Part shown: positions 2,905 to 62,108 of the stretch, piece by piece
How positions within the stretch are numbered: the stretch's first letter is position 1
Layout: each line of letters opens with the position of its first letter
From: Bilabrum cf. latius
Taxonomy: Eukaryota
Length of the DNA: 64,000 bases
NCBI GenBank assembly: GCA_965178125.1
Contig: OZ237744.1
Coordinates: forward strand, 372,001 to 436,000
Reading direction: 5' to 3'
Program-made: the position numbers and the translations under genes
The notes under the pieces: model-generated
What the model saw: only the letters and a program-made list of their open reading frames with translations
The model's database searches: none
What the model was told of the DNA's origin: nothing

Positions 2905-3003
2905 AAGCATAACCAATGTGCCAGTGGTGTGCAGCCTGTACCAAGAACTGCACTGCACTTCAGCGCGTCCCTTCCAAAAAATGGAGCACTGGATTTTGCC
3001 TTG

Positions 3004-4830
3004 ATGAGCAAAAGGGTCACTCTTGCATTATTTCGAAGTGCTCTGCGATTACTCAATGAATTGAAGAGTAGGCCCTAGGTTCTACATACCGCCACACTGA
3101 AGGCTTTTGGTCCTCCGCTGTCGGGTTCCAGATGGTCGTATGCCACGGCGTTATATGAGGTTCGCAAGCAGTTTCGAACCCAAGACACTTGTTGTGATCC
3201 AATTGACTAGGGTTTTGTCCAGCTTAGGAAGGCCCGCGAGAGCGTTCAATTGCTTCCTGTTGACCTGCAGGCCAGGATCCGACGAGTATCGCAAAGGCCA
3301 ATTGAGGCAAGGCCAGTTGCGTTGCTAGGGCTAGTCGGCGACATAGTCGCAAGCAGGCATAGCGATCTCGATTCGTCATCGTTTGTTGACGATGCCATGG
3401 AAAAGTGTGCGAACTTCTGTGCCTCCCGGGTCCAACAAGTACAGAACGTCGTTGCAGACAAGGTCGATGTGCTGCAGTATTGCCGGAATGAAGCCTTGGT
3501 TCAAGCACAAAAATTCAGACAAAGACAAGTAGCCATGCTTCGATAGATGCCCAAGACAGCTGAGCTTCAGCTAGCGCAGGCGTTCAGCGTGGAAGGGTTC
3601 GAGGTCCCGTCGCGCTCGAGACGGACAGATCGTGATGGCTTGAGCCTGGTGCAGGGGATGCTGGCACCATCAGAACAAGAGTGCAAGATAGTTGAAGAGA
3701 GTTTCTTTGCGTAGCTGCTGCTGCGAGCAGCCGATAACGCTGGCGTCGCTACTAGTAGTACTGAGCCTGAGGTCACAGGACGGGCTGCCGACAAGCCGAA
3801 AATCGAAGTAGGCATAAAGACAGGTGGTAGCCCCTCGTCTTTATCGTCATTAAATTATCAAATGTTGCTCGTGCATGCCCTCCGGAGGGAGACGCTCGGT
3901 CAGCGCGCTTTGGAGCTGTGCCCCACACAGTGCCACATCATGAACGAGCAGCTCATGCAGCAGCTGGGAATCGGTACACATGCTGCAGGGGTAAAGGTTC
4001 AGCGCCAGCACGATAATACCCCGGGAAGTTCGTCTAGTTCGCTGCCCCTGCTAGCCACTTCGAGAGCCACGATAGGGCATCTATCAACGATTGACATTGG
4101 TGCAGCCCTAGGACTCCCACGATCCCGTGCGAGTACCCCGAGGTCTTTGGCCTCGAATGCTCCACACACACCAGATTTAAACGGGTACCGTGGTGCTAAG
4201 ACCACCTCAAACAAATTTTACCAGAATCCACTGCCATCGAGCGCGCTTGTCCACGCTGCAATCGCGCAAGACGCGCTCAGAAGGTTGGGGTTGGTTGCAG
4301 AGATCGGCGTGCCTTCATCTGCCGGGGTCTGCTCCGTATAGCTGCCTATCGAATGGCCTAATGACGGAGGTGCTAGAATTGAATCAAGATAGGACTGGAT
4401 TTGGAATGACTCGAATATCCTCTTGGATTTGTACTCTGCTGGCGCGATCGAGACAGCGGGTTCGCTGGCGCGTCGAATGGTGCTCGCGCCTTAGAGCAAG
4501 GACCCAGCGCTTCTATCTTTTGTCAAACGAGAGACTAGCTGCTCGCGCATCGATCCGTCTGTTCTCTTGTAGCGCTACCTCAGTGCATCGGAGCGGTTGG
4601 TGAAGGAATCTGCCGCTGGCATTCACGGCCAAGCTCACGGATGGGCGAATGACGCAGGTGATGCAAGACCGCAAGCAAACGTGAGCCCTCAGGGCCGTGC
4701 TGCAAGCCATACTGCAGTAGGTCTACATGCTTACGAATCGGCTGACGTTCTGCTGGAGCGCCTGCGGTTAGCAAGGACGCAATGCTCCTCTCTAGCAGTT
4801 TTAGAGGGGCTCGATCGGTCGGTCTCTTAA
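3004..4830 (+). CDS. Hypothetical protein, ~608 aa
   Basis: ORFs 3250, 3862 and 4597 share a frame. Read codon by codon from ATG 3004 the frame has only TAG interruptions (about 8) and ends at TAA 4828-4830. No family recognised confidently. Confidence 0.7.
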
Positions 4831-4958: not shown

Positions 4959-7900
4959 TCACTTTTTCGTTTTCTTGAGCCTCGCCGCGGCTTCCTTCAA
5001 TGCATCGGTCGAGATGGCCGGTTTAGTACTGCCAGACCCACCGCTCCCGTGACCAGGCCCGCCTCGCCCGCGACCAGGCCCACCTCGCCCGCGACCAGGC
5101 CCACCTCGCCCGCGACCAGGCCCGCCTCGCCCGCGACCAGGCCCGCCTCGCCCGCGACCAGGCCCGCCACCCCTGGGAGCGCCTCCAGCTGCCCGACTAG
5201 AGTTCTGCCTGCTGCCTGCATCTGTAGGGCCAGCTTGATGCGCACTTGTCTCAGCCTGCGACTGAGATTGAGCCTGAGCACCATGATCAAGCGACTCTGT
5301 CGTACCTCTCTCCTGCCACTTCTTCAACTCCTGCAACAAATTGGCTCCCCCTGCAGGAACTGCAGGCCGTTTCCATTTCTTGGGCTAGGTTGTACCACCA
5401 GAAGATGCATTCAATTGCTCCTATTCCTTTCGACGCCTTTTCCTCTAGCTTGTCTCGACGAACTTCAGTTTTCTCTTTGTAGACATGTGCATCCCAAGCT
5501 GGCATGATATCCAGAGGAAGAGCTTTGCGGTGACCTGACCATCGACATGCAGCTCAGGCAGGCGGTGTGAGGCAATGACTGCCTGCAACACGGGGTCATG
5601 TCCTTCGCTTGCACTAGCAGCAGCACCCATGTCTGCAGCCCCTCCTACCGCAGCTCCCATCGATTTACCTTCCGTCGATGTCGATGGCCTGCCCATAAGA
5701 CCAACTTGATCCCGCAGAGGGTACCACTCGACGGAGGCAAGAGCACGACGCATTGCCTCACGCGCATCCTCAAGCTATTGCTCGGACAGCTTGCCAAGTC
5801 GCGCTGGAAATGGTCCCATGATCACTTCTCCGCTACAGATATCAATCGGGATGGGGCTTGCGGTCAATCGTGCCAAGCGAGGCTGGGTTTCCCGTGGCAG
5901 CGGTTGCTTCCCGTCCATTCTTGACAAGCTACTAGCAAGAGCTGCTTTGCACCGCATGAAGCTCGCCTCGTCCCGCAAGTGCTTGTCGTCATCGAGTCTG
6001 GTCATGGTCCTGTACTTCAACTTGATCACCATGTCCATTGCAGCCCTGAGGTACGCTCGTATGGCTGTTGCGATCGTGTTCTGGCGCTTCTCTTTGTGAC
6101 TCAATTTGGCACCCTCCTCTGCTGGCTCTGCGATCGGATTCATCGTATCGATCTCTGCAACCATTCCCTCGCATCCGCCTCTAGAACCCAAGCCATGTGA
6201 GTCAAACAGCTCTGCCAGCTGCGACTCAAACTTCGTACGAACTGCAGTACTCATGCAAAGCTTCGTATCAGTTTCGAGCTAGTCGTGCTTCTTCTCGGCA
6301 TTCCATGCTTCCTACAGCTTGTCGGTCTTGGCAGGTTCCTCTTCGTCTCCAGCCTGCTCCTGTAGCCTCCTTGCATCGGCCTTAAGGCGGGACAGTGCGG
6401 CTTTGCGACTGCTCAGCTCATTCTCCAGCACAGTGCGAGAGACCCCATCGATGATCGCATCCGCCTGGTGCTCCAGGCAGCGCCTGGCCAACGCCGAGGA
6501 GCTAGAATCAAGGACCAGCTCACCAGCACCGGTCGCCCTAAGCTAGTAAAAGGGATGACTCGCATGATGCTGCATGTCGGGTCCAGGGAACAGGGTGAGC
6601 TCACCAGCAATTTGCGCCCTTGCTGCACTGATCGCCTCCAATGAGGCTGGCTGGCCGCCGGCCTCGTCATCAGCTCCAGCTCCTGACGCTGGGCCAGCGC
6701 GGGGTTGACCACCGGTACTGCTCCTCTGAAGCTCTTCCAGTCGCGTCGGAACGGGTAGTTCGTTGGATTTCGGGGCGGTTGCCTTCGCCAAGTCCTCTCT
6801 GGACAATCCGAATGCACCGGGATTGCACGGGCAGTCCTCGAGAGCTTCACCCGATCCAGCCGTCCAAAACCCATAGGCAGGCACCAGGTCACTCCATACC
6901 TTAGAATCCAGGCGATTGACAGGCTCAGTACCCCCCTTAGAGTTTCTCGACTTCACTTTGCTTCCTACTTTTGAAACTGATGGAATCAGGCTCTGAAGCG
7001 CATCGCGCACACTGGCAGAGTCTCGTGCACCATCGTCACGAGGCAACCAGCAAGGCAAGTAATGGTCCTCAGGATTATCAACACAGTCTCTGCTTTCGGT
7101 GGGGCGCAGGCAAAGAAGCACCCGGCGAGTCAACCCGCGCGTGTACTCCGGTGCCTGCAGCACATCTAGCATCCTGATGGCAGCATCGACGGCTTCGAAT
7201 GAGATTCGGTGAATCGGGTCTTCGAAACGGCATTCAGTCTCTGCCTGGGATTGGAGGTACTGCGATACCACGGCCTCAGCGGCAACTTTCGGCGTGCACC
7301 TTGTGACGCGGCATTCTTCTCGCACCTTCTCGAATAGGCCCGCGTCTGCTTCGTCGAGGTTGCCAGCAGGCACCGCGTCTTTCTTGCCGTACTGATCCAA
7401 CAATTGGATCATCCTGTTGATCAGCTCCGCCTTTACACTGGAGTCTACTTTGGCGGCAATCCGGCGTGGAGTGCGGCAAGCGACCGCATCTAAGGCCTTG
7501 TACCGTGACAGCATGTCCTTCTCGGCCAATGAACACGGCCCCGAGACCTCCGACGCACGTGCGATTGCATCAGGTAAATTCAAGCCCTGCCTAAGGAAAG
7601 CCATGGTAGCGTGACGCCTCAGCAACAGCTTGGACTCTCGGTCCAGACCAGCCGGCGGGGACCAGGAAGCGATCCACGACAGGTAGTGGTCGTCGAGCTC
7701 GCGCTGCTGCATACAGTGCTGCGCAGCCTGCATAGTGCGCTGCCGGGAGAAGTCTGTTGCTTCGCGTCGCTCCTCGATGTACCTCGTCTCCACAAACTGC
7801 GCCCTCGTCCGGATCCATTCGAGCACGGCGCGAGAGGGCACCTTGCCGGGGCCCTTGGCTATCTCAAACACGTCATGCCGGTCTTTCACGTCCTCGAGTA

Positions 7901-10900
7901 GCGCCTTGAGCGCATCAATTTGCTCATCCACGGTAAGCGGCTGGCTTGATGCTGCCTCTTCGCCAGCTGACAAATCACCGCTGGTCTCGCCGGGGCTGGC
8001 TTCGCCTGGCTTCTTCGAAGAGGGGCGAACAAAGTGCCAGAAGGTATCCCAAGGCTGCAGGAACTCTGAGTCTAGAGGATCGAATTTCGGCATGTTGACT
8101 TGCTCGTTGCGCTCGTACGCTTCAATGAGAAGCTGGGCGAGAACTTCATCCCTCGGCGTGCCGCTAGTCGTCTCCGTTACGATGCGATCGGTCTCCTTGG
8201 CCAGTGCTTCGGCCTTGTTCGGCAACACCCGGTCTTCGGGGCTATAGCTCCAACCCATCTTGTCAGCGAGCTTTCGCGGAACTCGCACAGGTGCCAGCGC
8301 TGGGTCGTCGTCGACGAGTCCAGATGCAGCAGTGGCCTTCGGCTTCTCCGCAAGGGGTTCCTGCATCTGTTCGATCATACCCGTAGCTGCTTGATTGATT
8401 GCTCGAGCTAGCTTTAGTCGATCCTGCCATTTCTGCACAACCTCAGCAAGAGTCATTTGCTTGCTCATTCCCTGTATGCGCCTCAATGCTTCGTTCTCCT
8501 TCGTGAGTCGGGCAATCTCGGCATCTCCCTCGTCCATTGGGGCAGCGCTGCCACCAAAGGCGCTGCCAGTACCACTCGATCGAACAATCTCCATGGCTTC
8601 CTCAGTGGCTTTCTTGAGCTGAGCCTGCTTCGCTGCCTTCAATTCTGCGTCTTCCCTTCTGCTGTCTCGGAGAACTACCAATCGATTCAGTTCAACTTCG
8701 TGGTCCTTCATCACCTTCTCCATGTCCTCCTTTTCCGTGCTGCTGAAGGCCTCTAGCGCTGATCTTTGCCACTACTGCTGATTCTCTTGCTGCAATTCAC
8801 CAAAAGCGGCAGCAGTCCCCGAGAGGAGCCGGGGATCTAAACCCTTTTTCGCTTTCTTCAGCTGCTCCATGACCGTTTCCTTGATTTTCCCAAGGATGCA
8901 CCGGAAGGCCTTCTTGGTGTCCAAGTCCTCCACCCAGTCGTTGAGAACTCGACCAACTTCCTCCTTCGCCGTGCCAAAGGCAGCCTGCGCGCCTTCACCG
9001 GATTCGATCATCTTTTTCACGCTAAGCACGTTCCCAAGCACCCCGACCACCAAAGGTAGAGTCCTCGCGGCGTCAATCATGCCGACTCCGGACTGCAGAC
9101 CTGCGTTAGCAGCGCCACCGCGCTGCATGACCGTCTACACGGCCTCAATCAACTTGGCAGCCAGCATTGCGCACTGCATCTTGGAGTAAAGCGAGACAGT
9201 CGCCGTCACACTGTTTACTGTACTTGAGAGCTCATTTCTGATCGCAACCATGTTCTTGTTGCCACCCTTCGAGAGTAACTTGTCGTATGGTTCTTCCAAA
9301 CGAACACAAAGCTTCTGCAAGGTCTCCTGCAGTTGTTGCAGCCTGGCAGCGGCGTCCTCCAGACCGAGAGAGATGGTCAGCAGCAGTCCTGATTGGGCTA
9401 GGAGGCTGTCCTGTAAAGGATCGTCAATGATTGCTTGCAGCATCCGGAAGAAACCCGTAGTACTAGACCGCGCGTATCTCATGGACTTGTACAGATCCTT
9501 CAATCGTTTGACCAGCTGATCCAGCCCGGATCGGTGCCCAATCCCTATCGCTAGCATTGCCTTTGCCTCTAGCTGAGGGTCGTCGAGCTCCTCCTCAAAG
9601 CTGACTTCATCATTCGCGACCTCGCTGTCGTCGTCAGCAGCCTCATCTGCTGCAGAGGCACCCTGGCCCTAATCCGTGTCAATGGCGTCTTCGTTGCAGG
9701 CACTAGCTGCCCCGGCATAGCTCTGGCCTGAGCCTTTCCCCTAATCTTCGGACGCTGCCGCGCTACTCTGCGATTGTCCGCCATGAGCGCCGACTCTGTC
9801 ACGGTACAACTCGATACTGAATCTCTCCACGTGGTCTGCATCGGTGTGAGGTGGGTTCTCCTCGATAGCGGGCGTGCCACTTGCAGCACTGTCTGGGCCA
9901 TCGGACTGTGGTGGAGCTTCAACCCCAGCTTCAGCGTCATTCCGCAAGTGCTCGGGCAGCTCGTCCGCCTATGTTGTGGCTGCAACTTCTTCTGCATCCG
10001 ACTGAGCGCTTTGAGCCGCCATTTTTTGCTGCAATCTCCAATCCTTGTACGCGTCATAATCAGCCCTGAGCGCACGCCTAAAGTCAGCCAGTGCGAGATC
10101 AGAGGCCCTCTTCGCCTGAGCTACGGCATCAATTCCAGAATGGAGCTTGCGAGATCGTTGCTTGGCTGCCTGTACGAAAGCGTTCAGCATATCTTGCTCC
10201 AGCACAACGGCGGCTCGCAGTCTAGCCGGCATATCTCGAATCTCGGCCATCCCACTGTCCGAGACAGTGAGCTCAAGCTCTTCTAGCAGCCCATTGTACT
10301 CTTCCTAAGCAGCCTGGAGTCCAATCTGCGCAGCCACTGCTACTTGTTTCTAACCTTCGTTCCAGAGATAGTCGGTGAATCCCCTGCTCATCACCGAGTA
10401 CTCGACCGAGCGTGCATCCGGGGCCCGGCCAACTAGGTAGGAGCGATACAGCGGGAAGCTCACGTGACGCAGAGCGTGCCAACGTAACTACTGCGGCGAG
10501 GTAACGACAGGCTACTGACCGACGCACAAAGCACTCTTTTCGCATGCCTCGAAAAGTCGGTCGGCAGCAGGCTTGTCAACCTTAACATGCGCTGTCTGCT
10601 GCACGAGCGTCAACCAACCGGTGACATCGGTGCCAGTCCAGGCATCAGATGGCATCAAAGTACCGAGACCAGGGATCGCTAAGGGTTCGGGTTGTTGCCC
10701 AGAGGGCTATTCCCTCTGTGTTGCAGAGCCACCGGGTATACCGGTGCTGCTACTGCTGCCGGTAGTTGTACTTGGCCCGAACCAGTTGTGCTTCAGCTCA
10801 GTTATCCCCTACTCGATGCGGGACTAAATAGCCACGGTAGCCGTCCTGGCAGTACCCTGATACTCCATCAGGCGGGGAGCTACGAAGCGATCAATCGCAC

Positions 10901-13900
10901 TGCGAGTTATGAATGACACCTGGAACGCACAGAGTACAGCAAGTTTTGACTGGTCCCGCTGGTCTTCGAAATCTCTGTGGTTGTCCTCCTCGCCCTCGCT
11001 CTCATCGGTCTCACTGCCCTCATAAGAAGCGCTTGAACCAGCCGCCGCAGAGGACTTTGTACCAGTCTCCCGTTCAATGGCATCATCGAGACTCTACTTC
11101 CGCAAGTTTATATCCTATTCGCTGCAGACGGACACCAAGACACCCGGCATAGCTTCCTCGCCCTCACCACTCACAAAATCTCCGGTGGTCCTCAACCCGG
11201 CTGCATTCGAAGTAGCTGATGACCATCCAAGTATGGCATTGACACCAGCGATATACAGGCTCGACTCTCGGGATTCGGCAATTATTTTTGCGCCCTCCAT
11301 CGCTTCCTTAGCTGCATGGGGGGAGGCAGCGTCGTCAAGTAAAGCAAGCAATCTGCGTGCGTCCTCTCTATCCTCTACGACCTTTCTCCAGACCTCTTTG
11401 AGCTTGTCGACGTCCGCGCCTCGAAAATTTGCCGCTGCTTTGCGCCGGACAATGTCAGTGGCTGCCCGACTCCACGGCTGCAGCCTTTGCGGCCGGATAT
11501 TGACAGGCACACTGCGGAGCATGAGGCCGGGTCGTACCACCCCCCTCGCGCCATCAGCTACTTCGGCAAGACCATTGAACGCCAGTCCAAATGCCGGAAA
11601 AGCATGCGAAACATTTCCGCCCTACATGGCTTTGATGCTTCCAGCAGTGGCCGGCATGGCGTCGGCCTCCGGCTCGGAGCTATTGGTGCCTCCTGCAGCG
11701 GCAGTCGTGTCATCCTGCCCAGACCCATTGCATAGACGGAAAATGCTATCCAGCAGCACCGCGGGGGCCCTTGCCCCCTCAGATTTGTCCATCTGCGACT
11801 TCAACTGCTGCATCAAGTTGTTGATAGCCTTTTCTGCACCGTCGTATGCTTCCAAGCCAGCGATTCCATACTGCATCAAGCTGCTCGCAAACGATCCAAA
11901 ACGTCGCTGGGTGGCTCTTGCAAGGGACCTCGAGTGTCTCGGAACCGACGAACCCCCCTTATCCTCCTCCTCCTCCGGCCCACTGTCGTCATCATCGGCA
12001 TCGTTGCGTAGCAAGAGCCCAGACCCACCGGAACTCTTTCTCTTCGAACGACTACCAGTGCCCGCCGCTGCATGGCTGCTCTGGGCTTCGTTCCTGCCTC
12101 CCTCGGCTGCAGTGTTTGCCTCGCTTCCACTACCTTCGCCGCCATCCGAGTCGGTTTCAACATCGTCCTCTGACGAATCGCTACCGTAATTAGGAGCAGC
12201 TGTAGCTAGCTGGCTGGATCGAGTCAAGATAGTCTGCAATCGAGTAACTCCGTCGTTCAGTATCTTGCTGGCCTTTCTGACGCTTTCACCTGCCTGATAC
12301 AGAGATCGATCCAATCGAGGGACAATCGCAGGCGCTTGAGAGGTCGAAATCCTTACCAGACCCGGCCATAGCAGCTACTGTATCTGCTTACTCGATTCCA
12401 AGACGTGTTGAAGAACCTTTGCAGGGGCGGTGAGGGAGGCCAGCACGAATAGCACAGCACAGATATCGCCAACTAGCTCGCCGCCAACCAACCACAGACC
12501 ACCCTGCACTGCAGGGGATACGATTCCACCGAGCGCGACAGCCACTGCTAGAGCAAGCACCATGTATGAAAGGACAGCGAAAATACCGGCAGAGATAGGT
12601 GGCGGTCTGTAGTACGGCAGCAAGCGCGTGATATGCCGGCCGTCCAAACGTGAAGCTACAAACAAGACGCCCACGCCACCGCCAAGCACGATCGCATCTC
12701 CGCCATAATTTCCTTGCACAGCCTGGATGCCAGTTGTCCACAGGCTGGCCAGGCAAATGATGACGATGACAACAGAATCGATCCAAACCGGATGCTTGAG
12801 CTCGACCTGTACGCTATCACCGCGCTGGGGCAGGGCTGGTAGTGGCAAGTTGCTTCTGCGCATCAACAGGCGCTACACGCCCAGCTGTAAGGCTGAGAGA
12901 GCGTTCTACTGGTGCTGAACAGCCCCATCGATCGCGGCCAGCTCAACAGGATTCGTGGGACGTTCGCTCTATGGAAGCCGGAGTGGCACCATCGCATTCC
13001 CCGTGATGGCATCCCTGTCCATGTCACGATTCCAGCTGCCATCAGCCTGCATGGCTAGGTTAGAACCAACTATTTTCTATCGAGCCAGATCGTGCGTTGC
13101 TTGCAAGTCCGCAACGTACTGCGCCCTGAATACGGACTGGCTTGGTGGCCTGCCGTGCATTCCGCCAGCTCCCGGTCCATCCTCATCGGTAGCCTGTCCA
13201 GCTGCAGCGCCCTAGGGTGCACGATCTTCTGAGAGGTTCCGAATGCGCCATTTCTCGACGGCCTTAGCCTGCTCGGCGTCGTCCTCTGCTGCATACACCA
13301 CACGCCTTGCAGAGGTGCCTGTATCTTCGGCAGGCGGGTCGGCTGCACCAGCACCAGTAGCTGGTCCGACATCGTCCGCTGCATGCGCTTGCATAGCCCC
13401 ACCGGTCCGTACCGCATGGGGAGACGTGGCAATCGGCAGAAAAATCCTCCCGATCGTGCTTCCTTCCGGCAGCGGCAAGCCAAGGATTGCGCATACTCCG
13501 TACGTGACCGCCGCGGCGAGCCAACACAGAGCAGCGACGACCGAGAAGACCCCGGTTCCACTGCTCCAGATCAGAAGCAGGACCATGACGACGCAAGTGC
13601 CGATTGCGTCTTGCATTCCGCCGATAATCTCCCTGGCCCTCGTCCTCGAGGGGCCGTCCGGTTCCAGCCTTGACTGCTGGCCGGGCCCTGCAGGTTGCCG
13701 GCCGTTGGCGTTGGCGTTGGCGTTGGCGTTGGCATCACCATCACCATTGCCGCCTTCGTCGTTGTCTGGGTGCTGGTGCTCCTGTGGGGTCCTGGCAAGC
13801 AGCGCCCCGAGCATGGAATCGACCTCTGTTGGCTTGCCTGCCAGAACCTCCATCAACGCGTCGAGGCCGCCACCAGGCGATTCCTGGCCTGCGTTCTCTG

Positions 13901-14753
13901 TGCTGCTTCCACTCAATCGGTTCGAGAGTTTCTTGAGCTCCGCACCAAGGCGCAGAATGCCCTTCACGAATAGCGTTACTGCAGCGCGAGGCCTCCTTTG
14001 ATGAGCAAGCAGGCCAGCTGCCAAACCTCCCCAGAGAACCAGGTCACCGAAGCACAGCCACGTGCTCGCTGCAGTCAGAGACACCGGTTGCAACCGCAGG
14101 AGGGCCAGCATGGCACAGGCCGCGCCTGCAGCGACGTGGACGAGGGACGGCAGCAGCGCCAAGCTGAGCAGGAGGATCGAGAAGGTTGCAACCGCGACGC
14201 CTCGCAGAAGCACCGTGTCGTCGACGGCGGCATACACGGCGGCGAATACCAGCCTCCAGTGGATCGTTTCCCTTTGCATGTGCAAAAGTCGAATGGTGGA
14301 CATGTCTCGGTTCAGTTCCCACGATGCTTTGAGCAGGGGCATCAAGCCGAGCGTGATCCACGCACCAATGGTAAATGTCACCAAGACCACGGAGAGGAAG
14401 GTGACCAGACCAGATGCGTTGCCAATCCAACGCTTAGCTTCAATTGCATCGTCAAGACTAGTCCACGGGGTCCCCGCAACGTAGTCTGCCGAAACGCGCT
14501 GGGAACGAACAAAACCTGCACGAACGATGGACAAAACCATCGAAACCGGTGGTCCGAACACCGCTTGCAGAACACCTCTGCTGCCGCCGCGCCCTAAGAG
14601 TGCATCGAATGTTTCTATCCATTCTTGCCTGATGCCCTCGTCAGCTGTCACATGGCCCTAGGCAACTTCTTTTTGCGCTGTGGCGTCGACTGCGTTCTCG
14701 CTCTAAAAGGTAACTGAGGCGTCTGCAGCTATGTCTGCGGTTTCAGTGCTCAT
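4959..14753 (-). CDS. Giant single-exon protein (~3264 aa): N-terminal multi-TM region, coiled coils, C-terminal GGPGRGR repeats and WH2-like LKKT tail
   Basis: Twelve listed minus-strand ORFs (4959 to 13212) are in one frame. The gaps I read contain only TAG (about 30 in total), with no TAA/TGA between ATG 14753 and TGA 4961-4959. Confidence 0.85.
5052..5168 (-). repeat. 21-bp coding tandem repeat (~5.5 copies) encoding GGPGRGR
   Basis: Unit gaccaggcc(c/a)cctcgcccgc-type repeated on the + strand; RGG-like peptide in the giant ORF. Confidence 0.9.
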
Positions 14754-15121
14754 AACCGGCTAACCGTACACCAGAAAAATCGAGCTTGTAGCTGCAGCGA
14801 TAAACACGAGCGATACAGCTGGCATACCTCAAATCCACGAGCCAAGTATCTAGTCTATTATTCCGAATCAGCAGCAACAGCCGGTCTATTACACCAAATC
14901 TCTCTGTATCAGGTAGATTTCCTACTAAACACTGCTGAATTCAAGCTGCCTTTCAACCTTCAAGACAATAAATGGCCCTTTCTCCAGTCGTGCATGTGAA
15001 ATATGATATAATGCAGAAACGCACCCTACTATTGCAACATGGTTTGCCCGACTACAGCGACGGATTTTCAAGCCCCACGGCTTGCTAAAGGATATAGATA
15101 GGCAATGGGCCAAAGGCATGA

Positions 15122-15502: not shown

Positions 15503-15606
15503 TTTGCCGGGCAAACTTTGCCCTACACAGAGGGTGTTCTTGACATGCTGTAAGTAAAACTCAACTTAATATCACTCATTGATCACTCATTGCACCGGCC
15601 CGCACG

Positions 15607-17638
15607 TTACCCGCAGCGCCGCTCCACGATTCCAGCGCCCTCCTCTTCGTACTCTTTCTGGCCGATCCACAGCTGCTGGAACGTGCCGAGAGAGCTGAGC
15701 ACGCTGCCGCCGATCCAAGGCGCAAACTATCTCTCCAATCGCGTCCCGAAGACCACGCGCGGCTTGTGGGACGAAGGGATCAGCCCGCTCAGCTCCGTCT
15801 GCAGTCTGTCCGCCACACCTGGAATGAGGCTACCTCCGCCGCACAGCAGAATGTTCCTGCACAGATCAGGCCGGATGTCCACGTCGACCATGCCGAGGGA
15901 AGTGTGCACCAATCGGTGCAGCGCGTGAGGCAGAGGGGACGTTGTTCCCTGCGAACCAGTCATGCTCGACACCTTGGCGAGTCGTGTTCTCACGGCGATT
16001 TCGTAGGCGTACCTCCCTCGCTTCCGACCAAGGCCTGCACCGGCACCGGCACCGGCGCCTGACTCTGACGCAGCGGGGTCTGAGGAGGACGATGCTGCGC
16101 TGCTCCCGCTGGCACCGCCGGCAGCCGACCCCGCCTTGCCCCCAACGCCGGCCCCGGGCAGCGTAGGCGGAGCAAGGGGCACGTCAGGCTCGATGCGTGC
16201 TGGCAGCGCGGCACCGATGGACGTGTCGAAGAGGATCTCGCCCAGCTCCAGCCTCTGCGTACCCATGCTTAGTATTCGCCCGTCCGGGAGGCAGTACTCC
16301 TCCTCCTCGTCCTCGTCCTCGTCATCGCTGTCCTCTTCTTCATCCTCGCTGTCTTCTTCCTCCTCTTCCTCGTCCTCGTCCTCGCCGCCGTCGCTGCTCT
16401 TGCTCTCCGAAGCACTTGCTCCGCTGCTCGCCTGCTCGCCGTCCATCGGCGCCTGCTCGCTCCCCGAAGCACCTGCATGCGCCTTTTTGGTCGCAAATTT
16501 CTGCCTCGGAACCGCGTATTTGGCCACGGTTGCAACTGATCTCACGATGTCCTCGCCCAGGGCAGTGCGCTCCACGGCGTGGTACGAGGGTCTTGTTCCC
16601 TGGAGCAGGGCGTGCAGGCCCGGGTTTGCTTCCTACAGGGCCTTGCCGCCCCCAGGGGTCCACGAGTGCACCCCGAAGTGGGCCTCCTTCATCACGTAAC
16701 CCGGAATCGAAACAGCTCCGGCCTGAGGGTCCATGCCGCGCGAGCGAGCCGCCGAGCACGCATACCTCGGTCGGAGTGGCACTTGTGTCTCTCTCTCTGC
16801 CATTCTGCACGCGTACTCAGCCAGGGCTCGCATGCCCAGCGGGGACTACTGCACGGGCCTGTTGAGCTGGTACCCCTCTGTCACGGGGCAGACGCGCACG
16901 TGAGCAGCGCCCATGTCGACCACAAGGGCGTTCGGCAAGCCAGCGCTCATGGCTGCGCATGCACTCTGCTTGGCGAGGAAGGCGGCAGGGCAGTTCAGGC
17001 CCTCGAAAAGCAGTTCTGCCATTTTCTCTCGCTGGGCGGCTGGGATGAGCGCGTGCTCAAGCAGCAGCAAGGGGTGGTCCGACGCACTTGCGCCCAGAGA
17101 GGCCAGCGAATGCTAAAGCAGGCATTCCATGGCTTCCCAGTCTAATACTGCGAGTGAAAAGGCCTTACATGTGGTCGCTGATGCCGAGTAAGATGCTTGC
17201 GTCGAGCAGTGCCGGATGCAATGCCCATTGCTACTTTGCGGCTCTCACCGTTTCCGTCCTCAAAGATATGAACCATGTCTTGATTCGGTCTATACTTCAT
17301 TGCTACATCACCTATGTATAATGGGCTATTATCGCCCGGGGTCTTGCTATAAAAGACCCCATTTCTAGCATCACTTTTGGTCGAAGGCGTCCCTGCCACC
17401 GCCGCTCCCACCGAGCCCTCCGACTCCGAAATAACCCGAGAGGCTGCCGTCTATATACAACAATCTGGCATATCCCTCCCAGCCCATCCTACCTTAGTGA
17501 CGGCGGATCCCGTATCAATCACGATTGCTCCAGTTTCATCTGCGAAAGGGATGAATAGCAACGATTCAGGAAGACGTACAGGAAAGTACGCCCATTTTGT
17601 GCCAAAATACAATTGTGTAACATACCACCGCAGTACAT
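15607..17638 (-). CDS. ARP4: Actin-related protein 4 (BAF53/ACTL6-like), 3 exons
   Basis: N-terminus [16 protein letters not shown]; introns 17625-17540 and 17248-17148 (GT-AG). Motifs [26 protein letters not shown] and C-terminal [30 protein letters not shown]. Five in-frame TAG; ends at TAA 15609-15607. Confidence 0.9.
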
Positions 17639-17769
17639 GACGGGACAGGAGAGTCGTAGCTACGTTCAGGGCTAGTTGGGCCCGCATTCGATAAATCTGC
17701 ATTGTAATCTGCAGTCGAAAATGCACGGTTCTTTGTGGTCGCAACGGATTGGTCCATTCAGCGCTAAGA

Positions 17770-19434: not shown

Positions 19435-19645
19435 ATGTTGGTTTGGAGTTGCGCTCATTTCTGCCGTGCATTCTATGCCTCGTGCTCACTTGTCGCTTCG
19501 TGCACTCCACCGATCGCCGATCCGCAGCCTGAGGGGCGGCGCCGCGCAACATTGGGAGGCGGAACCTAATCCATCCAGACCCGCACGGAAATCTATCGCA
19601 ACTGCACTCAGTAGGATCCCGGGAGAGAGCATCGTATCTTGGGCC

Positions 19646-26534: not shown

Positions 26535-26934
26535 CGGCTAGCCAAAGAGACAATGAATGTAGAATCCGTTTTTATTTTGTTGGACTCATTCGATGTGTAT
26601 TCATTCGCGGCACAATCGCGCTGGGGATCCGATGTTGCGACCACACACCAGGATGCGACCGCCGACACCTTGCATCGTAGGATTCAGTGCCCCGGGAAGG
26701 GATGAGCTACTTTCATTTGATCACTGCACCTTGTTTCACCAATGAATAGCCATTCCAACGCCTGGATTGCCCCTCCCTGGCAGCATCTCAGGTGGTCCCA
26801 TCATCAGAGAGCCGGCAGCGCCGACCGAGAGCCGGACCAAACTCGGAGCCGCTCGGGACCAGCGCCACGTCGTGGGTCCATTTCCGCCGCATCCATACGC
26901 CCAGACACTCAGGTACATAATTTGCCAGCGCACC

Positions 26935-29917
26935 ATGGGTATCGAGATCTCTATCGTCTCCATTGCTGCCACAAGCTCAGCCTTCAATTCCACCTACCTC
27001 GCCAACAATAACGAAGGGCTCGTCATTGGGCGCTACGACGAAGTTTCCGGGGAGGACTGGACATTTGCGTGCGATGGTTCTCAGCAGTGGGACCTTCAAA
27101 CGTTAAGAAAGGCCTGCATTTACACGGGAAATCACGACCAGTGGGGGTACTCGTACCGCGGGCAGCAAGTCCCGGTTGCAAACTACGGGTAGACCAATAT
27201 CAGGTGCGAAATTGACCAAGATTTTGGCTACGAAGCAGAGAACATATGCTCGTACGGCAATGATGCATCAAGTTGCACTGGCACGTCGAGAGGCATCTTC
27301 CTGTCGTGCGTGCCGCGAGGAGACCTGGCGCTTCCAGTGTTGGAGTTTTCCGTCCCAGAACAGAACTGCTCCGGTCCGTGCACGACCATCCAGAACGCAA
27401 CAGTGCATGCCAGACTGGGTGGATTAGAGACTGGTCCAGTATGTGGTGTCGTCACGAATCAACGCGCCGCGGACGCTCTTTGCCGTTCGCTTTCTGTGCC
27501 CGGAGCTAGCGCTGCGTGGTGGGGCGCCTCTGCCAGCACGAATGGCTCATCGTCGTACTCGATGCACGAGTTCTCGTGTCCAGATGGAGATCCGATCTTG
27601 GATATTGGCGATCAATGCCATATCAACCGGATTCCGAGCTGCTCGGCGGACCAGGCTCTGTCTCTGTCATGCGTGATTCCATCGCCGTCGCCTAGTCCTA
27701 CTCCTTCGACAACACCATCAGCTGTGAGACTTTATTTGCAATAATGCTTTATACTGTTGAATTTGAGAGCAGTGCCTGCGATGTTGGAATGGTCTCCTCG
27801 GCCTCTTTGACCTCATGTGACTTGGGATGCGACCAACTCTCCCTCTCTCGCAGACTCCAACGACCACCAGCACCACCAGCGCCACGCCCACGCCGTCGAT
27901 GACCAGCACCACCAGCGTCACGCCCACGCCGTCGATGACCAGCACCACCAGCGCCACACCAGTGAGTTCTGAGTTGGCGTGATGCCGTGGAAATTAGGTC
28001 CGACGAGTTGCATGCCATCGATCTGCAAGGTGACCGGTGACAAACCGGTGACAAAATCATGCATGCTTAGCCAGCTGTCTCATTAATTCCATCGCAGACT
28101 CCAAGCACGACGGTCACAACGACTGCGACGCCCAGTGGCAACGGAATCTCGCCCACGCCGACTGTCAGCAGCAACGGAATCTCGCCCACGCCGACTGTCA
28201 GCAGCAACGGAATCTCGCCCACGCCGACTGTCAGCAGCAACGGGATCTCGCCCACGCCGACTGTCAGCAGCAACGGAATCTCGCCCACGCCGACTGTCAG
28301 CAGCAACGGAATCTCGCCCACGCCGACTGTCAGCAGCAACGGAATCTCGCCCACGCCGACTGTCAGCAGCAACGGAATCTCGCCCACGCCGACTGTCAGC
28401 AGCAACGGAATCTCGCCCACGCCGACTGTCAGCAGCAACGGAATCTCGCCCACGCCGACTGTCAGCAGCAACGGAATCTCGCCCACGCCGACTGTCAGCA
28501 GCAACGGAATCTCGCCCACGCCGACTGTCAGCAGCAACGGAATCTCGCCCACGCCGACTGTCAGCAGCAACGGAATCTCGCCCACGCCGACTGTCAGCAG
28601 CAACGGAATCTCGCCCACGCCGACTGTCAGCAGCAACGGGATCTCGCCCACGCCGACTGTCAGCAGCAACGGGATCTCGCCCACGCCGACTGTCAGCAGC
28701 GATGGTGTGAGATATGCTTGCGAGTCGAATGTTCACGCAGGTAGAGTGTGCTTCCCCAGGCATGTCTCTTGTCCATGTCTCTTGTCCATGTGCTTGCAAG
28801 TGCTCCTCGATTGAATCTGGTATGGTTTCTCCTGTGTTCCTCGTCGCAGCCACCAAGCACGCCATCGAGCACGGCAGCAACTCCGACCACAAGCCCCGTG
28901 AGAGAACAGCCTCAGCCTGTGTTGCACAGGCGACTGCTCGGCCCCAGCAAGGACTAGGCCGTGCAGATCCACCGGGTATATCAGCAGCTGCTGTTGCATT
29001 GCCTTTGCCCGACTATGCTGCTCCCATCCTTCGCACTCTACTACACACTCCTACTCCTCGCCTCGCAGTCGGCTTCCCCGTCCACGTCCAGAGCTCCCAG
29101 GCTCCCGCCCAGAGCCAGCTCGCAGCCATCTGCTGGCGGTGAGGACGATGCAGATCAGCTCAACGAAGCCTAGACCATCGAGGAAATCCTGGAGCAAGCC
29201 AGCGGCTCCAACTCGGTGGTAGAGGTCTGCAGCGATGGTCAGAACTCGGACAGGCTTCGGACCTTGCCGGTCCTGCTGCAGTCTCAGATCCGGATCCGAA
29301 ACCGTACCGTAGCTTAGACAGGATGCCGCAGCACGGATCTCCTGCGCCAGAAGGCGGCTTCTCTTGCCGGAGCAGAGGCAGGCGATGTCGTGATGTGGCT
29401 GAGTGAAGCTCGCGATGAGTCGAGGAGGTTGCAAAGCGGCTCTGGCTCAGGCGTGTCTACAGTGGTTGGGATGCAGATCCCCGTGGCTTCCCTCGATGAG
29501 GCCGACAGCGTGTTTGCAGGCTTGCGGGCCGTCGTAACGAACCAAACGGTGCTATCTGCGCTGAGCGGCTCGACTGGAGACGCTTCCCAGGTTGAGTGGC
29601 TTGCCGACAGCCCCGAGGCGTCCTTCTCGGCTCGCAACCCGAACGCGGAGCCGGATGCGGACGACGATGGCGGCTCTGATTTGTCCGACGCGATGATTGT
29701 ACTGATTGCCTGCGGCGCGGTCCTCGTCGCCATCGTGCTGGGAGTTCTCGTGATGAGCTACTGCTGCGGCGTGTCATGCTGCTGCTCGCCGCCAGCCAAA
29801 AGTGCTTCCCCTGTAGGATAGACCGTGGAGAAGGGAAATGTTGGGCCAGGCACGAATGTCTCCGGTGGGGCGATCGGATTCAGTGCCGGTGGCAACCACG
29901 AGGCAAGCCAGGTGTGA
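26935..29917 (+). CDS. Type I membrane protein: two SRCR-like domains, Ser/Thr/Pro mucin stalk, TM, Cys-rich juxtamembrane tail (5' end uncertain)
   Basis: SRCR-like patterns EGLV..WTFACDG..WD..AC and GPVCG..AADALCRSL..FSC..C..C..LSC. Introns 27724-27853, 27962-28097, 28707-28849 and 28898-29068. TM AMIVLIACGAVLVAIVLGVLVM. Stop TGA 29915-29917. Confidence 0.75.
28138..28698 (+). repeat. 33-bp coding tandem repeat, 17 copies (SNGISPTPTVS)
   Basis: Unit gcaacgg(a/g)atctcgcccacgccgactgtcagca; 561 bp / 33 = 17 copies; no spacers. Confidence 0.97.
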
Positions 29918-30246
29918 CTGGGTTGCTAACGTGGAGCCTCGGGATGGCTGGTACTGGAGCCACGATTAAATCCGGGTGCACTTGGAATGTCTCCACGATG
30001 TTTGGGGACGGGCTCGCAGGCTACGGCCTGAATAAATCCCGAGCATGTATCACTCACTGTGCACTTCGGCACTCATGATGGCGTTTCGCCGACGAGAGCA
30101 ATTTGTTCTCATTTTCATATTCTTCAGCAGGAAAATTCAATTCTGGACAAGCGCTACTATCTTAAGGTGCGCCTTTTAATCTATTAATTGCATTAACTCA
30201 CAAGAAATCAGTGATTCAAGAGCTAGGGCGTTCGCCAGAGTTTCTG

Positions 30247-33200
30247 ATGAACGTGCAACAGAGGGCAGCTGTTGAAGCGCCGCCGGGGCCGGTCATGGTA
30301 CTTGCAGGGCCAGGTACAGGCAAAACTTACGTCATTACTCAACGGCTAATTCATTTACTCAGAATCTCAAAGAGCGTTGCCGCGGTCAAGTCAAACGGAG
30401 CAAGCCAGCAGTCGATACACCACGCGGGAGGGGCACTCGCACTTACATTTACGAATAAAGCAGCAAAGGAAATGGCCGACCGCGTAAATAAATTGTCTGC
30501 ATAGGATGACATAAAAGTTCGATGCAGGATATGCACATTTCATGCACTGTGCTGCTTTTTGCTGAGGGCTTTCGCGAGAAGAGCATTTTAGATTGCGAGC
30601 GATAAGCAGAGGAATGAAGCGATGCTCACCAGCATACAGCGATGTTATGACCATGCTGATATTTCAAGAAATCTACAAGTCTCTATTAGGACTTGCGTGG
30701 AGCGCTGGAAGGGATTTGGATTTTCCCCCGCGCAAGTGCTCGCCCATGAGCAAGTTCGAAGCTCTGTCGACCAGAGGCTCTACGCGAACGTCTACGCTCA
30801 CTACTAGCGATACCTCCACGACAACAGATTGATGGACTTTGGAGATCTGACGCTTGAATGCGTGCAATTTCTGGAGCAGTCGCCAGCCGCATGCGAGGCC
30901 ATACACCGGCGGTGGGCTCACGTGCTCGTGGATGAGTTTCAAGACACCTCTTATCTGCAGTGGAAGCTGGTACGCCTGCTTACCCGGGGTCTCATAACAT
31001 CCATTCCGCAACGCGATGTTACGAGCAGCGCCTCAAGCAGTGGAAAGGAAGAGGTCTCCGAGCCTAGCCTGACCGTGGTCGGGGACCCGAACCAGTGCAT
31101 CTACACGTGGCGCCTCGCATCTGCGAAAAATCCCGAGCGTTTCCTGCGAGACTTTCCAAGTGCCAAGCTTGTTCATCTGTCTGTAAGCTACCGCTCCACG
31201 CCCCGTATCCTCAGGGCCAGCAACGCGGTGATCCGGCAGGCCCTCCCCGCGGACCCCCAGTCGGTTGCTTCAGTCAAGAGGGAAGAGCCTGCACCAAAAC
31301 GAGCAAGAGTGGAAAGCTGTATGGATAGCGAAGGGGAAGAACACCGCGGTGAAAGAACTTCCTTTGAGACGCTGCAGCGCTTGCAGTACGAGTGCCTCAC
31401 AGCGCAGGACAGCTCTGCAGACGGCCCCAAAGTGGCAGTCATGCTGTTCTCGACTCCAGAAGACGAAGCTAAGGCCGTGGCGTCGTTGACGAGACATGTA
31501 CACGGAGAATCGTAGTATTCATGTGCCGCTCAGGGGGGCGCCACTGACCATGTGCAGGCAAACAAAGACAACTTGCCCGGCTTTTCATCATCTAGAACTG
31601 CGTTGAAGCCCCCCGACAGGATTGCAGGTGCGGCTGCAACAGTAGGATCAGCGTTCTCCGTACCATCCGACCCGCGTCACGCGTCCAGTGAATCAAGTAG
31701 CAGCAAGGAGGACCGTTCTTTCCCCGGCTCGGTCGCTATTCTGGGCAGGTATCATGCGACACTGTCGCCGATCGAGACTGCTCTCCGTGACTAGCGGAGC
31801 CCGTACAAGAGGATAGGCGTCAAGAAGGCTCTGGATCGACCGGACACCAAGGCAGCACTATCACTTCTTCGCCTTGCTTCTGGGTCTGGCACGGACGATT
31901 CCATCGCTGATGCATTTGGGGCAGTACTCTCATTTCCAGCCAGCGGAATCGGACCGGGCACAGTTGAGCTTGCGATTGAAGCTGGGTCTCAAACGTAGGA
32001 TGGCGACCAGACAATTGATGCTTATCATGCTTTTGAAAGGGTTGCACGAGGTGACGCCGAGGCACGCGGAATCGGAGCTTCCAAGCTTAGGCCGATGCGC
32101 AGCTTGGTCGCCGCCGTGAGAAAAATTCGAGAACGGTTTAGGGTCCCCTCCTCTCTCGGTCTGCTCGAATCGGCCGGTGCTCTTGCGGCTGGTGCTCAGC
32201 TAGCTTCCAGTCTCGTCATGTCGACTGGGATAGCAGCCCATGCGGGGGTTGAGGAGGCGTGGCTTGCCATGGCTGGCTTTGCCTCGGCCGTGTCCTCCAT
32301 CGGGAGCGGGGCTGAGGGCAGCGGCACATTTCCCGCTGAAGGAGCATTACCCAGGCCAGCTGAACAAATCACGTCAAAGAGCACCCCTAAAAGCAAGGCA
32401 AAAGTGCTTGAAGAAGAGAGCGACGAATCACATAGTGAGGAGTCTGATATTGATTCGGATTCCGGTGATGGCTCAGGTGTTGATCCGGACACACTGGCTG
32501 CTTTTTCGTGCCTGTTGTCGGCGGTGCAGGGAGCCGTTGCAGACTGGTGGAGGGAGTGCAAGGAAATCGAGAGCATCTCGATTAGCATGTCGCGTAGTAG
32601 CGACCCTGCGACCGCCGGTTTGACTGTGTCGCAGCCACCGCAGTTGCTGGACTTTGTGCTGGAGAGAGTCTCGCTTCTGGGTGGAGCGGACGTATCAGTG
32701 GCAAGCTCGGCTTCATGCAGTGCACCACAGATCACCTTAAGCACCATCCACGCCAGCAAAGGCCTGGAGTACGACACGGTGATCATACCCGGGCTGATTG
32801 AGGGTGTCCTGCCTCCTCGCCCTCGACGAGCCGATGACACAATGGTGCGCTTGAAAGAACCAGACGATTTTGAAGTGGCTAACCCTGATACGCACCAGTA
32901 GCAGCGGATACAGGCATCAGAGGAGGACCCTGGTCTGCAGGAGGAGCGCAGGCTGCTGTACGTCGCGATGACGAGGGCCAAGCGGATGCTAGTCCTGACA
33001 CACCACGACAGAGCGGCCCGCCACAGAAGGCGGCAACGATGTCCCCCGTCGAGGTTTTTGGCCGCGCTGGAATCTTTAGCGTTCGGAGGCAACGGCGAGA
33101 AGCGTCGCGTTGACGTGGTATTCAAGGATTGCCGCAGGGCAGGGATCAGACCTGCGAGCTCCTCTTCTTCATCCAGTGCAGCCTCGTCAGGCTCCGGCAG

Positions 33201-33618
33201 CATGGCCCTGGCAGTCGCGCAGCAGAGCGCCAAGCTGGCTGCCATGGTGCAGTCGTCGCGGCGCTCAGGACAACGCCTGGGCCAGGGAGATTTCCGCGGC
33301 AGTCTTGAGGACGTCTCGGTCCCGGTGCCTGTGCCTGGCATCCCATCGGACTCGAACGCTTCTCACGCCTCTCGCCCGAGAAAGAGAAGTCGGCTGGTGT
33401 CCACTGTCGGGACTGGTGCGACTCTCGGGGCTGGCGCACTGCCAGTGCTAGGGCTCGCCGCTGCTGGTGCAGGGTCACTGCCCAGTTTGGGTGCGTCGAG
33501 GAGATCCGGAACTGCCCTTGGCGCGGCTGGGGCCTTGCCTGGACTAGCTGGGGGGTCGCGGGCCTCAGATGGGCAGCAAGCAGAGAAGCAAACAACTTCT
33601 GGCAGAGATAGGGATTGA
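30247..33618 (+). CDS. UvrD/PcrA/Srs2-like SF1A DNA helicase (~1123 aa)
   Basis: Motifs VLAGPGTGKT, LTFTNKAAKEM, TFHALC, DFGDL, VDEFQD, VGDPNQCIYTWR, YRST, TIHASKGLEYD and EERRLLYVAMTRAK all lie in one frame across seven TAG (30502, 30589, 30805, 31513, 31792, 31996, 32899). Stop is TGA. Start codon is tentative. Confidence 0.93.
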
Positions 33619-34530: not shown

Positions 34531-35519
34531 TGCGGTCGATGGTGAGGACGATGGTGACACGGGCATGAGAGGCCAGGCCCTGAAGGGGTTCCCCTGAGCA
34601 GGGGCGGGCTGGTCGTGTGATGGGGGCCGCACTAACGAGTGGGCCCATCGGGCAACACGGACGGGAAGTAAGCGATCTAGAGCAATGGTTGGTATCGGGG
34701 GCGCAGCAGGCGGCGAGAGGGCAATCACATAGCTTGGATTGCCCGGCATGGATCTCTCCCTGGTTTGGACAGTTGGACCGTGCGGGTGTAGGGACCTTAG
34801 TGGATGACTATGATGTTCCGTGGTTCGCGACCCCTCGTGAATGTTTCTGAATATAATAAATAGCCAAGTATTGTCCGCTGTGATGTGATTTGCTGCCGGG
34901 ACCACGGGGCTCGTCTACCCGTCGGGGGGGCGCGATCCTTGACAGCATCTACCGGAACACGGTGGACGCGCAGACACTGAATAACACACAGTTAATACGC
35001 TTAGCGTGCGTGATTGCTTCTCTGGGCACTTTTGGCTGGCGGTGGAAGGCGCGGCAAGTTTGCAGCCGGGGGCGCCCGCATCGACCAGGTGCAGCCGCGA
35101 CCATCAAGCAAATCAACGAGTCATAAACATATTTCATTACATGGAAAATATGTTGCGCTACTTAGATTTGCGCTACGGGGCCACAATTACGCCGAGCGAG
35201 CCGCTGGGCATGATTACTGATGCTCTCGTTGCGCAGAAATTTCTGCGCAATGCTGACCGATGGTTTTGATATTTGCATGTTAAGCAATACTGAAAGAAGC
35301 AAAGCACGCCTTACAGTAGTGCTACCTACGACGAATGTATCCGTTTTAGGACCGCCAACCACAATCCGACGGTCCCAACTTGAAGCATCCCGGATTCGTC
35401 ACTGGCAGGCATCGTGACCGGATCGCCGGCGGATCGTGGATGCTTGGGACGAACGCCACGTCGCCGGTCCATTGCACACATACGCTAAGACACTCAGGCA
35501 CATACTTTGCCAGCGCACC

Positions 35520-44500: not shown

Positions 44501-44900
44501 CTCTGCAGCTAACCCCGTGCTTGCGGGCAAATTGCAAGCCAAACGTGGCGGCAAGAGGCGACGTAGATCGACGAGAGACCTGTCGGCAGTGCTGGGCAAG
44601 GACCCAGCTGGATCGAACGGCTAGGCGCAGATGCGTGCTCTCGTCGGGCAGCGGAGATCCAGTCAGTCCCTGCTTGCGATTTTGGGCGAGGACAAGGATG
44701 AGGACGAGTTGGAGAACAACCGCGGTGGCCCCGGCACAGGGCGGCGCGGGGCGAAAAGCACCGTGGTGGGGACGAGGAGGATGCGGCAGAACACGATGCT
44801 TGCGATGGACAGTCTGCTCGGAATGGGGCCGGAGGAGTTGTTGAGAGAGCGAATGCAGGCTGTCAGCGGCAGGACAAGACGAGGGAGGGCGCTCGGTTGA
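35520..44900 (+). CDS. Very large surface protein: SRCR-like domains, mucin exons, long ectodomain, Cys-rich repeats and multi-TM C-terminus (5' end uncertain)
   Basis: 35520-37315 is paralogous to 26935-28200. Introns 36309-36439, 36512-36906, 37069-37204 and 37316-37412. Final exon 37413-44900 (~2495 codons) has only TAG interruptions. CRPCPSGAACPGG..PGYW Cys-rich region precedes several hydrophobic helices. Stop is TGA. Confidence 0.78.
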
Positions 44901-52500: not shown

Positions 52501-52681
52501 CCAGTGACCGCGCAAAGGCTGTAGATGGGTCAAAATTGCCGAATCCACCTCCTCGAATTGCTGCAGGGGATTCCAACCCTAGCGAAGCTCGCCGCTGCCG
52601 CATGAATCCATCAATTTGCTCCTCTCGAACATTAAGAGAGATTGATGGTGATTCTGCCGGTCTATGTTGATTGTCGCTCAT
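46535..52681 (-). CDS. Cyclic nucleotide-binding domain protein (~2048 aa, two interrupted CNB domains)
   Basis: Ten listed ORFs share one frame joined only by TAG. Motifs QGDIGRAFYLIVRGKAEV, LRAGETFGDLALL, RQATV, IDRDTF and RGDKADGLLMVRQGSL. ATG 52681; TGA 46537-46535. Confidence 0.85.
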
Positions 52682-52859
52682 GTTTGAGGTGGTTTTGTGT
52701 GCCGTACCAGAGTGCCGTTGACCAGCAGTTGCAACCGCTTTGGTGCTGACTTTCAATGATTGGAGTATAACAATAATTCCTAAGACCTGAATGCAAAATC
52801 AACGTAAAAATGTGCATAGGAGCCATTTGTTGCCCAGACGGGTTCCTGCTGGCAATCGG

Positions 52860-61800: not shown

Positions 61801-62108
61801 GTCACAGAGCAGTGGATCAGCCTGTGCTAGAGGATGGGGTAGCTGTCCGGACGCAGTCTGAGGCTCGAGGACAGAGGGAGCAAGCTGAGGTGTAGGAGGC
61901 AGGCGGTGGCAGGGAGCTGTAGGAAGGCGCCGAGCACGCTCTGCGCTCCGCACGGGCCATGGCCTTTGTTGATTGGCAGCGGCGGCTTGCCCACCAAAAG
62001 GAGGTTCGATCGGTTGCTGGGTCAGGAGGGGTGCGCTCGCCCAAACCGCCGGAGCGAAAGATAGAGGATCCCTTAGAGAAGACAAGGCGGATGGCTACGC
62101 CGTACTGA
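52860..62108 (+). CDS. Giant, mostly low-complexity protein (~3082 aa) with coiled coil and EF-hand pair
   Basis: Eleven listed ORFs share a frame, with gaps containing only TAG. EF-hands DVDGDGYIEVKE and DKNLDGKVSFAE (~59007-59150). Stop TGA 62106-62108. Alternative ATG at 52791. Confidence 0.83.

Follow-up and report, generated by a model that had tools for sequence, protein, structure and literature searches.

When UAA or UAG takes on a new meaning, the other almost always changes with it. Does this hold for a 64,000-nucleotide stretch of contig OZ237744.1 (positions 372,001 to 436,000 of the forward strand; hereafter the window, with positions counted from its first letter), or have the two codons been uncoupled there? 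The question is raised by the ARP4 gene on the minus strand of the window, where a TAG (15727–15729, ‘cta’ on the plus strand) and a TAA (15607–15609, ‘tta’ on the plus strand) lie in the same frame, 40 codons apart. An earlier reading, made without database searches, had placed the two codons at these positions and proposed that TAG is translated while TAA still terminates. Our analysis bears out this uncoupling: in the window TAG is a sense codon, and TAA behaves as a stop and never occurs in frame. The reading that we favour, to which we assign a probability of roughly 85%, is that the window is eukaryote nuclear DNA, probably from a heterotrophic stramenopile related to Cafeteria, in which UAG has been fully reassigned to glutamine (Gln) and only UAA and UGA terminate translation. 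This arrangement corresponds to translation table 15.

All codon counts given here refer to this one 64-kb window. Under the standard code its longest stop-to-stop frame has 742 codons, and the value is still 742 when TAA alone is read as sense. When TAG is read, frames of 3289, 3105, 2526, 2087 and 1150 codons appear. We counted codons in 15 frames, with families assigned by Pfam: an HDAC, an unknown-function gene, four giant low-complexity proteins, ARP4, IQUB, MCU, a cyclin, a BTB protein, two SRCR copies, a repeat protein and a UvrD-type helicase. Their 17,258 codons include 133 in-frame TAG but neither a TAA nor a TGA. The other two frames of the same 15 stretches hold 50 and 75 TAA, 170 and 148 TAG, and 275 and 377 TGA, respectively. 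TAG thereby accounts for about 0.8% of codons in the 15 frames and about 15% of their Gln codons. The in-frame ratio of CAG to CAA is 552:208, and at this ratio the 133 TAG should be accompanied by some 50 TAA if the two codons were synonymous. The earlier reading, which had met no in-frame TAA in any exon, holds across the full set of counted codons. The absence of TAA is not circular, since five frames (3289, 3105, 2087, 828 and 621 codons) keep their length when TGA is taken as the sole stop. These five amount to 9,930 codons, with 87 TAG and no TAA. Under the same sole-stop rule, any TAA in the other genes falls either ahead of the likely start or at the 3′ end.

TGA closes 13 of 16 frames and TAA the other three. 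In ARP4, the TAA occupies the alignment column in which all four full-length homologues end (P0002, P0003, P0006 and P0004), as the sequence-only reading had supposed when it placed this codon at the conserved C-terminus. The homologues end in ...DRCCG, ...DRRCG, ...QRFP and ...KKCP, and the window sequence runs ...IVERRCG before the TAA. The Pfam Actin model matches the ARP4 frame with an E-value of 3e-75 and reaches model position 409/410 at residue 544/545. From the off-frame rate of TAA, the chance of finding one in exactly this C-terminal column is about 0.4%. The same reading correctly gave TAA as the end of a 608-aa gene, for which we find a frame at 3001–4830 on the plus strand, with 609 codons counted from the first ATG. 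Its further statement that the other intact genes end in TGA is accurate for the 13 frames but not for copy 1 of the SRCR-domain gene, which supplies the third TAA end (27742–27744). The two SRCR copies belong to a segmental duplication (26851–27924 and 35442–36510) whose halves are 96% identical, with 39 mismatches in 1,064 columns. At one position, with identical flanks, one copy has TAA and the other TGA. The only indel before this position is in frame, with 6 nucleotides, and indels of 5 and 4 nucleotides occur only after it, as expected where coding constraint ends. In a small sample of six genes whose C-terminal region is anchored by homology (ARP4, IQUB, MCU, CobW, cyclin and UvrD), none ends at TAG. 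We conclude, as part of the whole code picture, that genes here stop at TAA and TGA and probably not at TAG.

To which amino acid TAG corresponds can be approached through a close relative, known as protein fragments P0001, P0009, P0010, P0011, P0131 and P0132, which are 85–97% identical to the window. Six window TAGs align to residues of this relative, and four of them face glutamine: two in ARP4, one in a giant frame and one in UvrD. The remaining two face leucine and lysine. One further UvrD TAG, codon 912, was excluded from the count, since it falls in an alignment gap although the span of P0131 and P0132 includes it. Four standard-code frames of the relative end inside window frames. At three of these ends (P0009, P0010 and P0131) the next window codon is a CAR codon for Gln; the fourth fragment, P0001 from ARP4, ends exactly before the window TAG at 15727.

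More distant homologues give a similar picture. In the ARP4 column VQ[TAG]SPLG, the closest homologues, P0002 and P0003, have glutamine, and P0006 and P0004 have arginine. In the column ER[TAG]F, which contains the TAG at 15727, P0002 and P0003 again have glutamine, with arginine in P0006 and lysine in P0004. At TAG codon 214 of UvrD, 81 of 148 homologues carry glutamine and 47 carry glutamate. Only eight columns within UvrD residues 28–360 have glutamine in at least 40% of sequences, and codon 214 is among them; three of four solved structures also have glutamine at this position. By these comparisons TAG most likely encodes glutamine, which is clearly the best reading. Leucine, serine and other residues lack support: leucine is found in one of the six comparisons with the relative and is not among the eight commonest residues at UvrD codon 214, and serine appears in none of the six. 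Repeated sequences within the window proved uninformative on this point. The sole TAG difference between the SRCR copies pairs TAG with CCG (proline), which is two bases away. A 33-bp minisatellite at about 28150–28700 comprises 17 nearly identical units reading QQQRNLAHADC in the open frame 28052–29917, and no swaps between TAG and CAG occur among the 17 units.

The TAGs are also present in contigs that appear to derive from RNA. In runs X5 and X8 the contigs correspond to gene units and are letter-identical to the window, and they show three deletions of GT..AG introns that are absent from the DNA-like run X1. Two of these introns lie in ARP4 and the third in a CobW-type gene (21516–21618). 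A single X5 contig, 9,818 bases long (5139–14956), has no joint and no differing letter, and it spans all 31 TAGs of the 3289-codon frame. Over this frame the contigs of four runs agree letter for letter, with no differences for X1, X5 and X8 among the pieces listed. Since the TAGs are kept unchanged in spliced contigs, they are neither spliced out nor RNA-edited.

How might the window’s code be decoded? Most likely in the manner argued for Iotanema (PMC5304391), a tRNA-Gln with anticodon CUA would read UAG. Such a tRNA should be unable to read UAA, as C34 would not pair with A; the earlier reading likewise predicted a tRNA-Gln(CUA) that has no UUA counterpart. On the side of termination, eRF1 would be expected to have lost, or to have weakened, its recognition of the third-position G of UAG while still recognising UAA and UGA. 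In Iotanema, as described in PMC5304391, eRF1 carries a substitution in the GTS motif, one of the three N-domain motifs GTS, NIKS and YxCxxxF; the paper also names the positions that correspond to human T32 and L69. With up to 31 TAGs in a single frame, decoding would have to be near-complete at each site.

Several observations weigh against the reading of TAG as glutamine and TAA as a stop, or limit its reach. The two residues of the relative that are not glutamine, the leucine and the lysine, both come from UvrD (P0131). TAG to CAG, in either direction, is the commonest single-base change, and comparisons with the close relative are partly confounded by mutation bias; distant homologues weigh more because this exchange is the easiest mutation. 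Two further UvrD positions are variable among the 148 homologues: TAG codon 113, with arginine in 44 and glutamine in 11, and TAG codon 142, with threonine in 51, valine in 34, serine in 34 and glutamine in 2. Several ordinary Gln codons of the UvrD query sit in similarly variable columns. A TGA lies 7 codons beyond the ARP4 TAA, and for ARP4 alone a short extension is compatible with homology, so the conclusion that TAA terminates rests on the whole tally and not on this gene. The RNA status of X5 and X8 is a software guess (‘RNA?’), and X5 is also marked ‘probably DNA’; we take both as transcript-derived because of their spliced joints. Among the contigs listed, none from X5 or X8 spans 15479–15999, which includes the ARP4 TAG at 15727 and TAA at 15607. 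The window holds no tRNA gene (ARAGORN, 0), no Rfam match (0), no rRNA and no eRF1. Lastly, 64 kb were examined, and rare in-frame TAA codons or termination at TAG could occur elsewhere in the genome.

Of the alternatives, one retains the same code but dispenses with a dedicated tRNA-Gln(CUA): the ordinary tRNA-Gln(CUG) would decode UAG as a near-cognate codon, with a first-position mismatch, and would do so efficiently because eRF1 no longer competed there. The window, with its 0 tRNA genes, is in keeping with this idea, a CUG anticodon would likewise leave UAA unread, and near-cognate readthrough of stops by tRNA-Gln is described for standard-code organisms in PMC13192750. Yet the 31 TAGs of the 3289-codon frame need close-to-complete decoding, which near-cognate reading rarely reaches, and according to PMC5304391 other UAG=Gln lineages with genomes carry tRNA-Gln(CUA). 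We therefore regard decoding by tRNA-Gln(CUG) as unlikely. A different possibility, which we hold to be quite improbable, is that TAG is ambiguous, encoding glutamine inside genes and terminating some genes in a context-dependent manner, perhaps where the poly(A) tail is close. Context-dependent stop use occurs in Condylostoma and, for UAA, in Blastocrithidia. Genes that truly end at TAG would by construction be invisible to a search for frames, and the HDAC frame holds a TAG 7 codons ahead of its TGA. For IQUB and MCU, the X5 contigs extend just 51 and 23 bases past the stop, respectively, which would fit short 3′ untranslated regions, though contig ends are not transcript ends. Against such ambiguity, the tally of TAG ends in homology-anchored C-terminal regions is 0/6, TAGs that lie 7, 32 and 40 codons from frame ends give no visible sign of depletion, and conserved actin-fold sequence continues beyond the ARP4 TAG that lies 40 codons from the end.

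A broader reassignment can be weighed on the same counts. Under translation table 6 both TAA and TAG would encode glutamine, and TAA would merely be rare in a G+C-rich genome. This is by far the commoner variant code (PMC5304391), and the window has a G+C content of 59%. However, the count is 0 TAA against 133 TAG where about 50 TAA are expected, with CAA making up 27% of CAR, and other codons ending in A make up 16–54% of their pairs. Furthermore, three frames end in TAA, one of them at a conserved C-terminus, and table 6 is accordingly very improbable here. It is scarcely credible that the in-frame TAGs are not translated at all, whether as assembly errors, pseudogenes, introns or codons edited to CAG in RNA. 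The agreement of the runs letter for letter and the retention of TAGs in spliced contigs speak against this reading, for which we found no evidence, as does the spread of TAGs across 15 frames, of up to 3289 codons without TAA or TGA. In addition, the relative shares one ARP4 TAG position. Full reassignment of UAG to glutamine, with UAA and UGA as the stops, remains the explanation that we prefer.

The features on which the analysis draws are collected in the table below. ARP4 is modelled with three exons, giving 614 codons, five in-frame TAGs in total and a TAA stop. Its third exon contains a long acidic Glu/Asp insert at 16287–16400, encoded by a GAG/GAC-rich repeat, and this repeat interrupts the contigs of all four runs, producing loose ends and false joints at 16351–16393. 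Ala, Gly and Ser abound in the four intron-free frames of 2,087–3,289 codons, and recognisable domains are nearly absent from them: matches are limited to an EF-hand pair, a cNMP-binding stretch and, at one C-terminus, an RGG-type repeat. Two of these frames begin back to back, at 52791 on the plus strand and 52798 on the minus strand. The spacers harbour a dispersed high-copy repeat in two inverted copies, one at about 2550–2870 beside the unknown-function gene and the other at about 15050–15480 beside ARP4, with 45 identical bases between 2566–2610 (minus) and 15416–15460 (plus). Its word depth in X1 is about 2,200–3,800, compared with about 41 elsewhere, which suggests some 50–90 copies per genome.

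Table. Positions of the codons, exons, introns and reading frames discussed, numbered from the first letter of the window.
Feature	Position	Strand	Basis and remarks
TAA stop of ARP4	15607..15609	-	follows ...IVERRCG; final column of 4/4 homologues
In-frame TAG of ARP4, 40 codons before the stop	15727..15729	-	context TRLER[TAG]FAPWIGGS
ARP4 exon 3, 4 in-frame TAG	15607..17147	-	open only when TAG is read; boundary 17147 from spliced X5 and X8 contigs
ARP4 intron, 101 nt, GT..AG	17148..17248	-	GTGAGA...CGCAG; joint 17147>17249 in X5 and X8, absent from X1
ARP4 exon 2, 1 in-frame TAG	17249..17539	-	spliced contigs cover the exon
ARP4 intron, 86 nt, GT..AG	17540..17625	-	GTATGT...CGCAG; joint 17539>17626 in X5 and X8
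ARP4 exon 1, coding part, ATG at 17638	17626..17638	-	spliced frame starts MYCGDETG..., resembling the start of P0006
Unknown-function gene, 609 codons, 8 TAG, TAA at 4828-4830	3001..4830	+	no Pfam family; X5 contig covers 3050-4501
Frame of 3289 codons, 31 TAG, 0 TAA, bounded by TGA	4959..14828	-	aligns with P0009 and P0010 from the relative
CobW/ZNG1-type GTPase gene, no TAG, His-rich loop, GC3 0.78	21286-22700	+	one 103-base intron, 21516-21618
SRCR-domain frame, copy 1, TAA at 27742-27744	26746..27744	+	paralogue has TGA at the same position
UvrD-type helicase frame, 1150 codons, 7 TAG, TGA end	30166..33618	+	Pfam; homologue columns
SRCR-domain frame, copy 2, TGA at 36327-36329	35418..36329	+	Pfam; paralogue alignment
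Frame of 2526 codons, 20 TAG, TGA end	37320..44900	+	codon tally
Frame of 2087 codons, cNMP-binding, 17 TAG, 0 TAA, TGA end	46535..52798	-	codon tally; Pfam
Frame of 3105 codons, EF-hand pair, 27 TAG, 0 TAA, TGA end	52791..62108	+	codon tally; Pfam

The window combines its G+C content of 59% with short GT..AG introns, very long intron-free frames, and genes for the flagellar IQUB and the mitochondrial MCU (Pfam). For both genes searched (2/2), the best named match is Cafeteria roenbergensis. ARP4 is 39% identical to P0003, whose cluster includes a Cafeteria roenbergensis protein, and the CobW-type GTPase is 59% identical to its Cafeteria roenbergensis counterpart, compared with at most 50% for the next named matches. 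The best matches of these two genes loosely indicate a bicosoecid-like stramenopile as the host. Words from positions 15001–25000 have a high share in runs that come from different studies and bear the labels of various organisms, and a small share in runs labelled protist or algae metagenome. Presence under multiple labels would fit a flagellate living in the cultures of other organisms.

Independent cases in which UAG alone has changed serve as natural experiments: they bear on how eRF1 distinguishes UAG from UAA and on the origin of tRNA-Gln(CUA). Few eukaryote lineages with UAG as glutamine and UAA as a stop have been described, namely Iotanema and three ciliates (as given in PMC5304391 and PMC11687900). 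A stramenopile case, if true, would add a new and distant lineage, in which long genomic contigs and RNA-like data from public runs would make the predictions for eRF1 and the tRNA directly checkable. There is also a practical consequence, as gene calling under the standard code fragments proteins, as seen in the relative’s P0001, P0009, P0010, P0131 and P0132, and annotation needs table 15. Cafeteria is described as a giant-virus host in PMC6972860, and for this reason a Cafeteria-like flagellate with a table-15 code might be the sort of host that giant viruses sharing the code infect.

Codes in which UAG encodes glutamine and UAA remains a stop are reported for Iotanema spirale (Fornicata; PMC5304391) and for the ciliates Protocruzia tuzeti, Hartmannula sinica and Trochilia petrani (PMC11687900). 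The window shares with them a UAG sense codon matching glutamine, termination at UAA and UGA, and the absence of UAA in frame. It differs from them in its Cafeteria-like lineage and its G+C content of 59%, in coming from long, multi-gene contigs, and in encoding a mitochondrial calcium uniporter (MCU) and the flagellar IQUB. The chromosomes of phyllopharyngean ciliates are gene-sized, and Iotanema lives anaerobically; both points would argue further against those lineages as the source. Moreover, the main stop here is TGA, at 13/16 frame ends, whereas UAA dominates in ciliates of the table-15 type, according to PMC11687900. The table 6 code is attributed in PMC11687900 to many ciliates, some ulvophycean green algae, hexamitid diplomonads, Streblomastix and Amoeboaphelidium. 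With these the window has in common the reading of UAG as glutamine and, by analogy, a mutated tRNA-Gln as its likely route; unlike in table 6, however, TAA occurs at 0 of 17,258 in-frame codons and ends three frames, so the defining feature of that code is missing. UAG as leucine is reported for the rhizarian exLh (PMC5304391) and for ciliate metagenome-assembled genomes (MAGs) from TARA (PMC11687900), and UAG as serine for Scotinosphaera (PMC11687900). Organelle codes with UAG as leucine are those of tables 16 and 22. In the nuclear codes with leucine or serine, as here, UAG and UAA differ in meaning and UAA is kept as a stop, but the amino acid differs, being mainly glutamine in the window (leucine once in six, serine never). 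A giant-virus catalogue (PMC13524828) describes some MAGs as better annotated under alternative codes; unlike these, the window is cellular, with spliceosomal introns and genes for ARP4, a cyclin and MCU. We found no stop-codon reassignment in a stramenopile nuclear genome in the literature searched, which included the review PMC11412368 and covered subscription journals and supplements incompletely. The lineage carrying the table-15 code is probably new. We put forward, tentatively, that this may be the first variant nuclear code in a stramenopile, an independent origin of UAG as glutamine with UAA retained, in a G+C-rich, intron-poor relative of Cafeteria. The code itself is of the known table-15 type and not a new kind, and the window agrees with that type in the sense use of UAG, the match of UAG to glutamine, the absence of in-frame UAA and termination at UAA.

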